This document shows, one piece after another, positions 38,425-46,720 of a stretch of DNA of 64,000 nucleotides (positions are counted from its first letter, which is position 1; every line of letters starts with the position of its first letter). The notes beneath the pieces are model-generated. The model did not search any database, had not been told where the DNA came from, and saw only the letters and a list, made by a program, of their open reading frames with translations. Source of the DNA: a virus (Duplodnaviria; Caudoviricetes). A program made the position numbers and the translations under genes. Location of the stretch: positions 24,422-88,421 of IMG/VR virus record IMGVR_UViG_2757320666_000001. The stretch is one strand, 5' to 3'.

Positions 38425-39513
38425 TTAGAAGGGTAAATCTTCAACTTGTGGCTCTTCTGTATCATCAATAAGATTGATTACAGTTCTTGTTCTTGTAGTG
38501 GGTGCAGGTAATGGATTATTTAAAAGTTGATTTCCTAAAGAAATATTAAATGCTTCTGCTGGAGTTCCAGGATATTCATTGTAAGAATCAGTTGAACTGT
38601 TCAGAAAATTAGAAGGAACAAGTAAACTTTCATTTACTAATCTTCTTGCTTCTTCTATATTAAATGAATTAAGATAATCAGAAGTTATAGGATTAATAGG
38701 GTCAATAGCACCTCTTCTTCTCATTTGAGCTACTAAACCTTCCATTTTCGGAATTTCTTCCCCCCATAAAACTTCATCTTTTTTAACAGGAACAAATTTT
38801 CTTTGTCTATCTTCTAATTTACTACCAATACCAGGATTAAAAGTTTTAAATTGTTCAGGACTTTTAAACATTATGCTACCTACATTATTAATTAAATGAT
38901 TTTGTAATTCATCAATATTATTGAATTTCATTTCAAATTCATTAGAATAAGTAAGATTTTCTATTTTAACAGAAGTAGTAAAAACTACAGGAATATTTAC
39001 TTTATAGGCATCTAATATATATTCTTTTTCTAATTTTTTATAGAAATTTGTATATATAGGATTAGTAACTAATTCTGTTGAAACTAACAATGTTAAATTT
39101 TTAGCATTTTCTTTTGGTATTGTGCTTTTTGAATATCTTGGTTGAAAAGGAAGATTTAATTTATCAGGTTTAGTAGTCAATACCATAAGAATTTCATCTT
39201 TGTCATTAACTATATAACCTTTACCTACATAAATTATGTTTTTTTCTTCTCCTAAACCTAAATTAAAAGCATATAAACCAACACTTTCATTAATCATTTC
39301 AAGAAAATCTCTAATATTAAATTTTCTTGGTCTATTATCAATTTTAAGTAAAGGTTTATGATATAAAATAAAATTTCCTTCCGTAACTCTTTGATAACGA
39401 TTACTTTCTCTTATACAATTAATTATAGGAACAAAATAAGAAGTAACTGATGAACCAATTTTAAATTCATTACCATGAAATTCACTACGATAAGTTTCAG
39501 TTAATTGTAACAT
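38425..39513 (-). CDS. Uncharacterised protein, last gene of the ubiquitin-like cassette
   Basis: 362 aa; ATG 2 nt after the E1 stop; IIYVGKGYIVND...LMVLTT core; low-complexity acidic tail ending DLPF. Confidence 0.55.
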   Translation of the reverse strand: MLQLTETYRSEFHGNEFKIGSSVTSYFVPIINCIRESNRYQRVTEGNFILYHKPLLKIDNRPRKFNIRDFLEMINESVGLYAFNLGLGEEKNIIYVGKGYIVNDKDEILMVLTTKPDKLNLPFQPRYSKSTIPKENAKNLTLLVSTELVTNPIYTNFYKKLEKEYILDAYKVNIPVVFTTSVKIENLTYSNEFEMKFNNIDELQNHLINNVGSIMFKSPEQFKTFNPGIGSKLEDRQRKFVPVKKDEVLWGEEIPKMEGLVAQMRRRGAIDPINPITSDYLNSFNIEEARRLVNESLLVPSNFLNSSTDSYNEYPGTPAEAFNISLGNQLLNNPLPAPTTRTRTVINLIDDTEEPQVEDLPF

Positions 39514-39515
39514 AT

Positions 39516-40202
39516 TTAAAACTTATTAGTGGTTAAAGCTAAAGGAATAAAGAACTCGTAGTAAAAGGGAACATCTCTTACAACTTCTCTTTCATAGATG
39601 TTTGTCATGTGATTTGTGAAAAAAGCAGTCATTAGAGTAGCTATCATAGCTGCTGCATGAGAAGTTTGTTTCATTGTGCAAGGTGCATCTTCAACTTCTT
39701 CATCTGTAAATAATGTTTTTTCATAATCTTCAATTCTGTCTGGAGTTACACAGAAAATTTGCAATTGTTCCATTTCTAATCTACCATCAATTAAAATAGG
39801 TGTTACTGCACAATTTTCAATACTTCTCTTCCAGTTTTCAAACATATTCTTTCTTGCTAACATATTGTCAAAACCAGAAAACATAAAATAATGAGTAGGA
39901 GAGTTTTCATCTATTCTATTATTAAAGCCTGACATTGAATCATTAGCAAATTCCTTGATAATTTCAGATAAAGCAGAAACTTTATGTTTACCTACATCTG
40001 AAAGTCTAAATAATTGACCTCCTGTATTATGTTCTTCAATAATATCAAAGTCATAAACAATTGGTTTAAATCCTGCTCTTGCAAGAAATAATGTAAGCCA
40101 AGAGGAAATTCCTCCTGCTCCACCTACCATTACAGTTTCATTTTCTTTTGGAAACCAAGGGGCATCTTTAAATCTATTATACTGTTGTGTCATTTTTTTC
40201 AA
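39516..40202 (-). CDS. ThiF/MoeB/E1-like adenylating enzyme
   Basis: VMVGGAGGIS nucleotide-binding loop, YDFD..EEHN, GKHKV, GFDN..AR, IDGR, candidate catalytic Cys175 in DAPCTMKQ; N-terminal YNRF. Confidence 0.88.
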   Translation of the reverse strand: MKKMTQQYNRFKDAPWFPKENETVMVGGAGGISSWLTLFLARAGFKPIVYDFDIIEEHNTGGQLFRLSDVGKHKVSALSEIIKEFANDSMSGFNNRIDENSPTHYFMFSGFDNMLARKNMFENWKRSIENCAVTPILIDGRLEMEQLQIFCVTPDRIEDYEKTLFTDEEVEDAPCTMKQTSHAAAMIATLMTAFFTNHMTNIYEREVVRDVPFYYEFFIPLALTTNKF

Positions 40203-41448
40203 ATTCTACAATCATAGCTCTAATAGCTTCGATTGTTACATTAATAAATGGGAATTGCATAATTTCATCTCCTAATAAATCAATTACTACATAAGTATCT
40301 TCAACAAATTCTTCATCAGCAGAATCAGGAAAATGTTTATCATATAAAAATGTATAATTTTCAATAACAGAAGAAGCAATTTGATAAGCATCTACTTCTA
40401 AATCTTCTAATAAACATAAAGCATCTTCAAGAGTTTCATTAGGTTCAATAGGAGTAGTAAACTTCATTAATTCTATGGTAAAAGTATCAATAGGACTTAA
40501 ATCATCTATTTCAGATAAATCATCAAAAGTTTTGATGTCTATCATAGAAGCTATATTTTTTACTTTTTTACCTCTATTAGATAATTTAGTTTCATCAATT
40601 TTATAATGCTTGATTTTATTAGCCAATTTAGCATTTTCCAAATTATTTACTGCTGGTATAGCAGGTGTATTAGGAATCCACTTACCATTAATCCATTTAC
40701 CATTATTAAATCCTGTATTAACAGGTGTATTGTTAGTAGTAGCAGGATAAGTATGAGGAGTAAATTGTTTAATAGGTTTAGGTTTCATAATTTCCTTAAC
40801 TCTATTATCAAATCCTTCTTCAACAATTACTTGTTCAAATGGAGAAATTACTTCACAATCATAAACAAACATTTTATCTTTTTTCAAAGTGATATTTGGT
40901 CTATCTATAATGTATTTTACACCATTTTCATCATTTGCATAATATGGAATTTCTTTAATTTCTTGTTCTAAACTTGCAACAAATGCAATTTTAGCCATAA
41001 AATCCATATAATTATTTACAATTAATGATAAATAAAAATTGTGTGATGGAGAATTATCATTCAATTCAGCCATATCTGTACCAGAAAAGAATACAGCCAT
41101 AGTATTATGACTATGAATATGACCTACATACCAGTCCATTCTTTTTTCATCTTCCATTAGATAATCAAGGTATCTATCATCAAGCTCATATTCTGTATAA
41201 GCTGATGTTCCTTTATCTAATGGTAAAATATCTTCCAATTTTATTTTGAATGTTAGTGGCTCTTTAATACTACCTTCAATAGAGTAGAATAAAGCACCAG
41301 ACCATTCATCTTTGTTTATATTTTTACAAAGGTACTTGATTTTGTTCAGAATCTCTTCTGACATAATTACTGGAAGTTTCAATGTAGTTAATTCCGCTAC
41401 CTCTAACACAGGCTTTGTAAATTTCGGATTCGAGTTGTTTACAGACAT
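40177..41448 (-). CDS. JAB/MPN+ metalloprotease (deubiquitinase-like) with long C-terminal extension
   Basis: E48 (EWSG) and H112-S-H114...S122..D125 (GHIHSHNTMAVFFSGTD) form a complete JAMM motif. Confidence 0.88.
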   Translation of the reverse strand: MSVNNSNPKFTKPVLEVAELTTLKLPVIMSEEILNKIKYLCKNINKDEWSGALFYSIEGSIKEPLTFKIKLEDILPLDKGTSAYTEYELDDRYLDYLMEDEKRMDWYVGHIHSHNTMAVFFSGTDMAELNDNSPSHNFYLSLIVNNYMDFMAKIAFVASLEQEIKEIPYYANDENGVKYIIDRPNITLKKDKMFVYDCEVISPFEQVIVEEGFDNRVKEIMKPKPIKQFTPHTYPATTNNTPVNTGFNNGKWINGKWIPNTPAIPAVNNLENAKLANKIKHYKIDETKLSNRGKKVKNIASMIDIKTFDDLSEIDDLSPIDTFTIELMKFTTPIEPNETLEDALCLLEDLEVDAYQIASSVIENYTFLYDKHFPDSADEEFVEDTYVVIDLLGDEIMQFPFINVTIEAIRAMIVEFEKNDTTV

Positions 41449-42586
41449 AATCTAAAAAATTAGGATAAATTCCATATTCGGAAATATCAATTGTTGTTAT
41501 TTGTTCAATAGGTAATATATTGAAAGATAATTTCTTACCTTGAATATATAGGAAAGGCATCTCACCAGAACCTTGTTCTTTTATTTTATTTGTGATTAAT
41601 TGTGGACCAGAAATCCTTTGTCCCATTTCAGGATATGTGTAAAATTTACCATCACTTCCTTTTTTACAAATAACTTTTGTAACATATTCTTTAAGATTTT
41701 CATTGTTTAAAAAGGCATCTTTTAGAAATTGTGTAAAAACAAAATCTTTTTTAATTTTAAATACACCATCAATATAAACAAAATTAAGAGGTAATTTTTG
41801 AGGTAAAGCTAATTCATAGCTTACATAGCTTAGAAATTTTCTATATATACTCATAATTTCACTTGTAGAAGTAGTAACTCTAATAGCTGCATCTTCTATA
41901 GTTATTTCTCCCATTCTGAAATAAGGACCTCCTTCTAAACTTTCCCAAGCTACAAGTGAATCAATTGTATATAACATCAATTCAAACTTATCTGAATCAA
42001 ATTCAGCAGATAATTCAATATCTAATTCAGATAAATCTTCTGAACCAATACAAAAATTATTTGTTATTAAGCATTCATTAAAACCAGTAATTTTAGAAAT
42101 ACCAGGTAAATGACTATGCATATATCCTCTATTCCATTCATCTTGTAGTAATGTTACTCTTGTTCCTTGTATTCTTTTTGTATAAATACAATTATTATCA
42201 ACACTAAAAGTAACAGGTAAAACAGCAATTAAATCAGTCAATTCTCTTGATTGGTCAGAACTATTTGTAATTTCCAATTTAGGATAATACATAATAAAAC
42301 TTATTTCGTAATAATTTTTATTATCTATTCTTCTATTTGTCAAATGAATATCCCATTTATCTACAAACTTTCTTTCAAAAACAGTAATTAATTCAAATAA
42401 TTGTTCAGTAAAAATAGCATAATTTCTCTTATGTAAAATTTTATATCTATCATCAAAATTATAGTAAATTTTACCTTTATCAATCATTTTTTTTAACCAT
42501 TCTCTATTTCTGGTCAATCCTGATATTCTTGCTGAACTAATACAGTTTTGAAACTTATTAGATGATTTATTATTTTTTAAATCCAT
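41324..42586 (-). CDS. Prokaryotic E2/UBC-like conjugating enzyme (inferred)
   Basis: Beta-strand meander followed by YMHSHLP...FC179IG and WESLEGGPY, analogous to E2 HPN...xCx; lies between the Ubl and JAB genes. Confidence 0.6.
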   Translation of the reverse strand: MDLKNNKSSNKFQNCISSARISGLTRNREWLKKMIDKGKIYYNFDDRYKILHKRNYAIFTEQLFELITVFERKFVDKWDIHLTNRRIDNKNYYEISFIMYYPKLEITNSSDQSRELTDLIAVLPVTFSVDNNCIYTKRIQGTRVTLLQDEWNRGYMHSHLPGISKITGFNECLITNNFCIGSEDLSELDIELSAEFDSDKFELMLYTIDSLVAWESLEGGPYFRMGEITIEDAAIRVTTSTSEIMSIYRKFLSYVSYELALPQKLPLNFVYIDGVFKIKKDFVFTQFLKDAFLNNENLKEYVTKVICKKGSDGKFYTYPEMGQRISGPQLITNKIKEQGSGEMPFLYIQGKKLSFNILPIEQITTIDISEYGIYPNFLDYVCKQLESEIYKACVRGSGINYIETSSNYVRRDSEQNQVPL

Positions 42587-42657: not shown

Positions 42658-43527
42658 TTATCCAAACATTTTAGCTTCAGCAGCTAATCTGTCATCTTCT
42701 TCTTTTTCAAGTCTTGCTTTTTCTTCTTTTTCTTTCTTTTCAGCAGCAAGTTTCTCTTCCTCTTCTTTTTGAGCTTTTTCTCTTGCAATTCTTCTACCTT
42801 CATCTTCAGGAGATTCATCTTTTGAAGCAGCAACAGAAGCTACTACATCAGCAACAGTTGTTACAGTAGCAGTATCATCATTTTCAACTTCTTCTTTTAA
42901 ACCAGGTAAATAGTCATCAAGAATCTCATTTGCTCTATCAGAAACATCTTCATTTTCTGTGTTATCACAAATTTCTTTTAATAAAGTTTCAACTTGTTCA
43001 ACTCTATCAGCATTTGTAATAGTTCTTACAGGAGCAGAAGGAGTTTCTATAACAGTAGCTGTTTCAGTAACTACAGGAGCAACTTCTTCTTTTACCTCTG
43101 CTTTTGCAACACCAGAAGGAGCAACAAAAGTATTTAGTAAACCTCTCAAGATTTCAGTACCTTTTGTGGTATAGTTTTTTTCTTGATTATAGTGAGCATC
43201 TGCTTCTTCTTTAAAAGAAGTAAAATCATCTTTGATAGCAGATTTGATTTCTTTGTAAGATAAACCATCTCCTCTACCACCAGATTTAACTTGTTTAGGT
43301 CTCATAAACACAGTAAAATCTCCTGTTGGTAATACTGCTGCATCATTAACAAGGTCTGTTTTGTTAATATTTTCAGTAGCATGTAACTTATCAAGGTCAT
43401 AACCTTCTCTTTTAATAAGAGATTTCAATTCTCCCCAAGTTGTAGCTTCTGTTTCTAATTTTGCTTTTTTTGCTCCTTTTGTAGCATAAAGAGTAATAAC
43501 TCTTGCTGTAGCTGTTTGTGTACTCAT
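42658..43527 (-). CDS. Ubiquitin-like (beta-grasp) protein precursor: 84-aa Ubl ending VKSGG plus a 205-aa extension
   Basis: RVITLYAT..AKLETEATTWGELKSLI....L....N..DL....AVLP..DFTVFMRPKQVKSGG has the beta-beta-alpha-beta pattern; G83-G84 at 43276-43281. Confidence 0.7.
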   Translation of the reverse strand: MSTQTATARVITLYATKGAKKAKLETEATTWGELKSLIKREGYDLDKLHATENINKTDLVNDAAVLPTGDFTVFMRPKQVKSGGRGDGLSYKEIKSAIKDDFTSFKEEADAHYNQEKNYTTKGTEILRGLLNTFVAPSGVAKAEVKEEVAPVVTETATVIETPSAPVRTITNADRVEQVETLLKEICDNTENEDVSDRANEILDDYLPGLKEEVENDDTATVTTVADVVASVAASKDESPEDEGRRIAREKAQKEEEEKLAAEKKEKEEKARLEKEEDDRLAAEAKMFG

Positions 43528-46552: not shown

Positions 46553-46720
46553 TTAATTTTTGAATGTTTTTTCAAACTCTTTTGCTTCTTGAGCTAATCT
46601 TTTGTTTTCTTCCTCTTCATAAGAAGTTTCTTTTGCTGTTTTAGATAAAAACAACATTAAGATAAAACCTATGTTTAAAAGAATACTAACCACAAGAAAG
46701 AATATTAATAGTTTTTCCAT
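46553..46720 (-). CDS. 55-aa single-pass membrane protein (not in the ORF track)
   Basis: MEKLLIFFLVVSILLNIGFILMLFLSKTAKETSYEEEENKRLAQEAKEFEKTFKN*. Confidence 0.55.
   Translation of the reverse strand: MEKLLIFFLVVSILLNIGFILMLFLSKTAKETSYEEEENKRLAQEAKEFEKTFKN

Follow-up and report, generated by a model that had tools for sequence, protein, structure and literature searches.

The open reading frame at positions 42658-43527 (minus strand, ATG to stop, 289 aa) of the window, the whole 64,000-nucleotide stretch of phage DNA that was analyzed, codes for a ubiquitin-like (Ubl) tag followed by a long acidic tail. The protein is probably a pro-Ubl, which a JAMM peptidase encoded nearby would cut after G83 and which an E1-like enzyme and an E2-like protein, termed gene X, would then conjugate to a target. 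The window comes from a Flavobacterium psychrophilum phage of roughly 90 kb, which is 99.7% identical over this region to FPSV-S29 and to twelve further genomes of Fipvunavirus. The gene for the precursor is labelled there only as a hypothetical protein, PHROGs places it in a family of unknown function, and scans of the 289-aa protein with Pfam and PADLOC gave no match.

Residues 1-83 (43279-43527, minus strand) are predicted to be a ubiquitin-like domain, made up of a beta-grasp core (residues 9-77) and a C-terminal arm (R76-P-K-Q-V-K81-S82-G83). The AlphaFold2 model of the precursor, built with a 37-row homolog alignment (mean pLDDT 77.6), has a beta-beta-alpha-beta-beta core with strands at 9-15, 20-26, 48-52 and 71-77 and a helix at 31-41 (pLDDT about 88). 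Foldseek matched the N-terminal domain to ubiquitin, SUMO, NEDD8 and ISG15 (target TM 0.64-0.72), with superpositions of 2.2-2.8 A rmsd across 75-80 residues. The top VIA-align matches were FAT10, UBX domains, ubiquitin, SUMO and ISG15 (Z 8-9.4, rmsd 2-3 A over 68-78 residues), and a shape search of the ESM Atlas returned viral hypothetical clusters and eukaryotic ubiquitin-domain proteins, and nothing else. The assignment depends on the predicted structure, because sequence methods (Pfam, PDB sequence profiles) miss the domain; a profile search of PDB sequences found no relatives for it. Residues T30, W31, L34, L66, K81 and G83 are invariant in homologs of the domain.

The end of the domain is marked by a single conserved glycine. 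An earlier note, made from the sequence alone, had placed an internal Gly-Gly at residues 83-84 (43276-43281) and a tail of 205 residues behind it, and the translation of the reading frame agrees with this (minus strand; G83 codon at 43279-43281, G84 codon at 43276-43278, 205 residues C-terminal of G84). The pair itself is not a family motif, as only G83 is kept. An unbiased alignment of 120 homologs has R76, K81 and G83 in every sequence and P77 and S82 each in 119/120, whereas position 84 is mostly alanine and is a glycine in only 6/120. G83 was also found in 73 of 74 locus-derived homologs. Among cluster representatives (the best 149 of 2,150 matches), 14 have a glycine at position 84, and the residue that would occupy P1' is variable (A, L, S, G, I, V, N, T and others). 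As read from these alignments, the conserved boundary motif is K81-S/A82-G83 with one glycine, G84 is incidental, and the conservation of G83 goes far beyond chance. The predicted scissile bond at the G83-G84 junction (43276-43281, minus strand) lies after G83, with G84 as P1'. The homolog alignment that had been suggested as a check therefore supports the expectation in part: Ser-Gly is kept at the domain boundary and the length of the tail is highly variable, but the second glycine is not kept and the sequence of the tail is partly conserved.

To what extent residues follow the glycine can be judged from two collections, 80 loci from a back-translated IMG/VR scan and an hmmsearch with a profile of the Ubl domain only against 1.84 billion cluster representatives, which gave 2,150 matches at E<=1e-3 and 1,128 at E<=1e-10. 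The Ubl domain is N-terminal in all 150 best matches listed, and in 149 of them the match reaches the last profile position. Among these best 149 of the 2,150 matches, the domain ends in KSG in 131 cases and in KAG in 16. No tail of 0 aa was found in this set; 8 tails have 1-5 aa, 5 have 6-30 aa, 19 have 31-100 aa, 106 have 101-200 aa, and 11 are longer than 200 aa. In the IMG/VR loci, one residue (K, F, R, I or E) follows the glycine in L002, L052, L069, L070, L076-L079 and L082, two residues follow in L074, 21-22 in L063-L065 and 52 in L003, and most other loci have 100-270. Altogether, about 230 relatives have between 1 and about 270 aa after the boundary glycine, and never 0. The tblastn matches of about twenty more distant IMG/VR loci stop exactly at query residue 83.

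The boundary in the IMG/VR loci and in the 149 representatives was set by the K-x-G pattern and is in that respect partly circular; the same position was found independently from the hmmsearch end coordinates and from the free alignment of 120 homologs. The short tails are metagenomic gene calls, which recur in many independent contigs with an intact gene X downstream. In an 86-column tree, short tails would require 7 changes if the tree is left free, and well-supported branches force only 1. The tail appears to be dispensable in about 9% of the best 149 representatives, or roughly one lineage in ten. None of these relatives encodes a free C-terminal glycine, and trimming would therefore be required throughout; judged from these sequences, the tail would almost certainly have to be removed before the tag is used. 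The junction itself (residues 78-90) has a pLDDT of 63 in the AlphaFold2 model. The low pLDDT and the abundance of indels (39% identity, 22% gaps) are what an exposed, cleavable linker would be expected to show.

The tail is entirely helical apart from its linkers. In the AlphaFold2 model, helices span residues 91-133, residues 140-166 are disordered, a hairpin follows at 172-216, and a single long helix covers 240-286. The three features described before from the letters, a helical segment, a linker and a long charged helix, are thus all present. The module next to the predicted cut site, module i, comprises three short helices (residues 91-134; 43126-43257, minus strand; pLDDT 86-89). It is followed by the helical hairpin (residues 172-216; 42880-43014, minus strand; pLDDT 90-96) and by the long charged helix 240-286 with the acidic amphipathic C-terminus EEDDRLAAEAKMFG (residues 276-289), which together occupy 42661-42810 (minus strand).

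Conservation along the protein is uneven. Mean pairwise identity among 34 full-length relatives is 67% for the Ubl domain (residues 1-83), 39% for the indel-rich junction (84-90), 56% for module i as compared to 27% for the linker that follows it (135-171), 34% for the hairpin (172-216), 33% for residues 217-262 and 48% for the last 27 residues. The hairpin is considered lineage-specific because of its mean identity of 34% and 17% gaps among relatives. L281, A282 and E284 near the C-terminus are invariant in homolog alignment A1. Across 134 diverse tails, the consensus directly after the cut site is sYKElR..IK...hfN.GKNYT..sT.eLr.LL, and the C-terminal consensus is e...L..Ea.el..gf. The idea that the tail varies freely thus holds for its length, but not for residues 91-134 and the last ~15 residues, which are kept from Flavobacterium phages to gut crAss-like phages. 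In the crAss-like Ubl of cr128_1, for example, ...KKIKSG is followed by AMNRKEIYALIK, then by a ...YTRCKSEDLLKLIE helix, and then by an acidic ...EIDEMFDFV end. The tail has a net charge of -22 in the window phage and a median of -10 across the family; the Ubl domain, for its part, is slightly basic.

A protein consisting of the tail without the tag was not found. Two protein searches gave no stand-alone tail homolog, no tail-only protein is present among 1,504 ORFs of related loci (one-residue-tail loci included), and no separate tail gene lies within 6 kb of the loci whose tag carries a single extra residue. For the tail, nothing above noise came out of Pfam scans of 37 family members, and a feature search of the ESM Atlas with residues 85-289 gave no usable match. 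We read the tail as a selected, system-specific accessory, the function of which depends on co-production with the Ubl. Two further ideas were considered, a SAP/HeH-like motif for DNA binding in module i, which has two ELR-type helices around a GKNYT loop, and DNA mimicry by the acidic tail (net -22); no analysis supports either of them, and we do not claim them.

A separate observation concerns the end of the tail. A 55-aa ORF elsewhere in the window (46553-46720, minus strand), which has an N-terminal hydrophobic segment, ends in ...EEEENKRLAQEAKEFEKTFKN and closely resembles the tail end EEDDRLAAEAKMFG. The pattern LA.EA has only two matches in the six frames of the window, at the ends of this ORF and of the Ubl tail. 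The 55-aa membrane ORF was found only in the closest relatives (L004-L008), and the likeness may be a coincidence.

Genes for the enzymes that a tag of this kind would need adjoin the Ubl gene. The order Ubl, X, JAB, E1 after a primase gene was found in every IMG/VR locus with enough flanking DNA; the primase gene precedes the cassette with or without UDG (80 IMG/VR loci). The cassette sits in the replication module, both in Flavobacterium phages and in true Crassvirales (cr128_1, cr111_1, crAss001, the PhiCrAssBcn phages, DAC15, Kehishuvirus and Kolpuevirus). In Crassvirales its genes are annotated as hypothetical, metalloprotease-domain containing, or E1 family protein.

The JAMM/JAB metallopeptidase gene (40177-41448, minus strand, 423 aa; PADLOC JAB 4.5e-6) is the proposed maturase and deconjugase. 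It carries the full JAMM/MPN+ motif E ... HxH x7 S xx D, and two homolog sets (46 and 35 sequences) have E48, H112, H114, S122 and D125 without exception. The Pfam match to Prok-JAB is weak (16.6 bits, versus a curated cut-off of 25 bits), and a PDB sequence profile search with the JAB alignment gave only spurious helical-repeat matches to the C-terminal region.

Read from its first ATG, the JAB reading frame shares 125 nt with the end of gene X (41324-41448), and a start at M29 would leave an overlap of 41 nt. Positions conserved in >=90% of homologs begin with L40, followed by E48, and the L003 homolog aligns from residue 27. In all 13 near-identical GenBank phages, a 1,021-bp insertion interrupts the JAMM region of the gene at about residues 110-123 (for example L001 9083-10153 in FPSV-S29, MK764449); the window phage is without the insertion. 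This inserted DNA represents a group I intron on the strand of the gene (Rfam RF00028, 43.4 bits, E 2e-9; the gathering score of 50 is not reached) and bears, on the other strand, an ORF for a LAGLIDADG homing endonuclease (Pfam 3e-10). Because of this interruption, PHROGs and GenBank split the JAB gene into two hypothetical proteins.

The E1-like adenylating enzyme is minimal, with 228 aa and a single ThiF-type domain (39516-40202, minus strand; Pfam ThiF 4e-12), and is labelled ThiF in GenBank. Its best sequence match among solved proteins is the NEDD8-E1 UBA3, followed by MccB and PaaA. Conserved residues are G28xG30G31, D51, D53, K74, D112, R117 and D139, and C175 is present in 40 of 41 sequences. 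The E1 gene is followed by a 362-aa gene (38425-39513, minus strand) with homologs in only 26 related ORF sets; jackhmmer found it absent from all short-tail loci. It may belong with the downstream recombination genes (a 177-aa protein and the PDDEXK exonuclease phrog_412) rather than with the Ubl cassette.

Gene X (41324-42586, minus strand, 420 aa) codes for a candidate E2-like enzyme, an assignment that we make with moderate confidence from its model. In the AlphaFold2 model (pLDDT 83.7), the region of about residues 50-230 starts with an alpha-helix, which is followed by a beta-meander, a loop and further helices; VIA-align indicates a fold of the UBC/UEV/RWD type. The top 50 VIA-align matches are mostly E2, UEV and RWD chains and include BubB (9eav_D, Z 5.0), although the scores are modest (Z 4.2-5.4). 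Foldseek against the PDB gave nothing convincing, so that the UBC-type fold was seen only by the exhaustive aligner, and gene X has no Pfam match and no PDB-sequence relatives in a profile search. H159, C179 and E215 are invariant in 38 homologs, and all three are retained in the gut crAss-like homolog (hhalign probability 99.6%). Gene X exceeds its usual ~400 aa in some of the loci with a single-residue tail (460 aa in L002/L052, 521 in L069, 543 in L070 and 446 in L078) and has 349-405 aa in others. The extra parts of the long versions are not homologous to the Ubl tail.

Among described systems, Type I Bub is the closest proven analog. There, BubCD uses its JAB domain to cut the BubAB pre-protein directly behind the conserved G229 (Ye, Gong, Chambers, Corbett 2024; PMC11601596). 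As in Type I Bub, the phage Ubl is fused to a long C-terminal polypeptide, a JAB/JAMM protein is encoded in the operon, and a single glycine is conserved. The cut in Bub yields an activatable Ubl and a second product in 1:1 ratio (PMC11601596), and by analogy we propose the same cut for the phage protein. BubB is also, as mentioned, one of the structural neighbors of gene X. However, the part released in Bub is the E2, whereas the phage E2-like protein is the product of a separate gene and the phage tail is all-helical and acidic, has no UBC fold and belongs to no known family; the precursor is thus no Ubl-E2 fusion. JAB and E1 are fused in Type I Bub and separate here. The Bub E1 and E2 work without cysteine and form Tyr/Ser oxyesters, in contrast to the phage proteins with C175 in the E1 (40/41) and the invariant C179 in gene X. 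No Pfam match to the DUF6527/BubE serine protease of Type I Bub was found in the eight ORFs flanking the cassette. Finally, Bub is bacterial and associated with defense, but the present cassette is carried by phages in their replication module.

The Bil system shares other features with the cassette. In Bil, the E1 can act only once the extra residues behind the conserved C-terminal glycine are gone (Chambers et al. 2023/2024, PMC10557695), and BilC, which removes 1-9 such residues from BilA, also cleaves a fusion of BilA with GFP (PMC10557695; Hor et al. 2023, bioRxiv 10.1101/2023.09.04.556158). Like BilABCD (PMC10557695), the phage cassette has the gene order Ubl, E2, JAB, E1 and a conserved glycine followed by extra residues. 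The extensions in Bil are 1-9 residues long, as opposed to 205 residues with conserved modules here, and the Bil E1 is multidomain, unlike the single ThiF-type domain of 228 aa. None of the PADLOC models matched the Ubl or gene X, sequence similarity to Bil proteins was not detected, and the order H159, C179, E215 in gene X differs from that in BilB (C138, E144, H146, H151; CEHH motif). Bil protects bacteria from phages, whereas here a phage carries the system. The cassette lacks the fusions, the cysteine-less chemistry and the DUF6527 protease of Bub and the multidomain E1 of Bil, and it therefore belongs to neither; it is a separate phage-borne lineage that would work like both.

More distant parallels exist in eukaryotes and in other phages. 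Eukaryotic ubiquitin is translated as polyubiquitin or, in UBA52 and RPS27A, as a fusion with a ribosomal protein, from which a deubiquitinase frees it together with an equal amount of the tail. The phage protein resembles these precursors in that a modifier with the ubiquitin fold is translated as a fusion. The eukaryotic tails are ribosomal proteins that stand alone in other lineages, and the motif at their boundary is GG; the phage tail, in contrast, was never found alone and follows a single glycine. The comparison with ubiquitin-ribosomal-protein fusions that had been drawn in the earlier note therefore does not extend to the tail, which has no Pfam family and no stand-alone homolog in the searches that were run. 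In lambda-type phages, the tail assembly protein I, a Ubl, adjoins the JAB/NlpC protein gpK (Iyer, Burroughs, Aravind 2006, PMC1779556). This is likewise a phage beta-grasp protein beside a JAB peptidase, but it belongs to a tail-assembly module without E1 or E2 and to a different Ubl family.

Several other explanations have to be weighed against the proposed maturation and conjugation. The protein might never be cut, and its beta-grasp might stay in place as the N-terminal interaction domain of a larger, helical protein, in the manner of UBX or Rad23/Dsk2-type proteins, with JAB, E1 and X acting elsewhere. Non-conjugated Ubl and UBX domains are indeed among the top fold matches, the tail has two conserved modules that are always joined to the Ubl domain, and it is longer than 100 aa in about 80% of the best 149 representatives; conserved tail modules would also fit a protein that remains in one piece. 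We nevertheless consider this highly improbable. Many family members are essentially a Ubl domain with 1-5 residues attached, K81 and G83 are the only invariant residues near the junction and lie exactly where homology ends, the cassette contains no other Ubl candidate, and E1 and JAB are invariably linked to the Ubl gene. Another scenario accepts the cut, but not the role as a protein modifier. The E1 would then make an acyl-adenylate or thiocarboxylate of the mature Ubl, as with sulfur carriers of the ThiS/MoaD/CysO type, or an MccB/PaaA-type C-terminal modification, for a nucleotide or DNA modification pathway of the replication module. This is very unlikely in our view: among solved proteins, the NEDD8-activating enzyme matches the sequence of the E1 best, a protein with the UBC fold and invariant Cys and His, unneeded in sulfur-carrier pathways, is always encoded between Ubl and JAB, and Pfam detected no rhodanese, cysteine desulfurase or sulfur-acceptor enzyme among the ORFs scanned. 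In its favor are the E1, which is a minimal ThiF-type domain of 228 aa, is called ThiF in GenBank and has MccB and PaaA among its solved relatives, and the DNA-metabolism genes that surround the cassette. JAB peptidases are also known to process sulfur-carrier Ubls such as CysO.

It is possible, though not what we would expect, that the cut frees a fully independent second protein and that the Ubl is a co-translational chaperone or a device to set stoichiometry, which was the point of the ribosomal-protein analogy. The folded parts of the tail are well predicted (residues 91-133 and 172-216, pLDDT >90), its modules are conserved family-wide, and the part released in Bub is a working enzyme (PMC11601596). 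However, no free-standing tail homolog was seen in the two protein searches or in the 6 kb around short-tail loci. Dispensability of the tail in about 9% of the best 149 representatives, its lack of a Pfam family and the empty Atlas feature search also speak against full independence.

Together, the fold, the glycine boundary, the spectrum of tail lengths, the gene neighborhood and the catalytic residues are best accommodated by maturation of a pro-Ubl, for which we infer the cleavage, the cut site, the activation, the transfer and the role of the tail as follows. The precursor would be inert while any residues follow G83, because the carboxylate for adenylation by the E1 is absent in this state. 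The JAMM peptidase (40177-41448) would cut after G83. The 228-aa E1 (39516-40202) would adenylate G83 and probably form a thioester at C175, from which the Ubl would be passed to C179 of X (41324-42586) and then conjugated to a target; the JAMM enzyme could also reverse the conjugation. Of the interpretation in the earlier note, the precursor reading has strong backing from comparison, whereas the motif has to be corrected to one glycine, and the tail is partly conserved and was never found as an autonomous protein. The precursor reading is carried by the invariant glycine boundary, a tail that is never zero, and the constant linkage of the Ubl gene to JAMM and E1 genes.

The other product of the cut, residues 84-289 (206 residues), would be made in a strict 1:1 ratio with the tag, and could be a regulatory pro-domain, a docking handle, or an adaptor that is released on cleavage. 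It is not likely to be an independent housekeeping protein, because it was never found encoded alone and is reduced to 1-5 residues in a minority of relatives. Action of the tail before cleavage (by blocking or docking) and after cleavage (as a released adaptor) appear to us about equally probable. A more specific idea, which we regard as rather unlikely, is that the tail is a cleavage-activated adaptor, and that module i and the acidic C-terminal helix dock the precursor on a replication or host-defense protein. If this were true, JAB would free the tag at the docking site, for attachment on the spot by E1 and the E2-like enzyme. The precursor would then be a tag-plus-targeting-factor polyprotein of crAss-like phages, used in genome replication or counter-defense.

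The putative precursor design has already been proven in one bacterial system, and we found it undescribed for crAss-like phages in the searched literature. In the open literature (subscription journals being outside the scope), no description was found that links Crassvirales or crAss-like phages to a ubiquitin-like system or to ThiF. The K-S-G83 boundary opens the system to direct tests, as it defines the mature tag for E1 assays. On target lysines, trypsin digestion would be expected to leave Ser-Gly (+144.05 Da), and clean mutants can be designed, either G83A or a stop codon placed behind G84. Regulation or target choice may lie in the long, conserved tail. Prokaryotic ubiquitin-like conjugation has so far been studied as bacterial defense against phages (CBASS, Bil, Bub). 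Here it is a phage that carries the kit; the carriers include cultured gut crAss-like phages as well as phages of the fish pathogen Flavobacterium, and in all of them the tag would be made in an inactive form.
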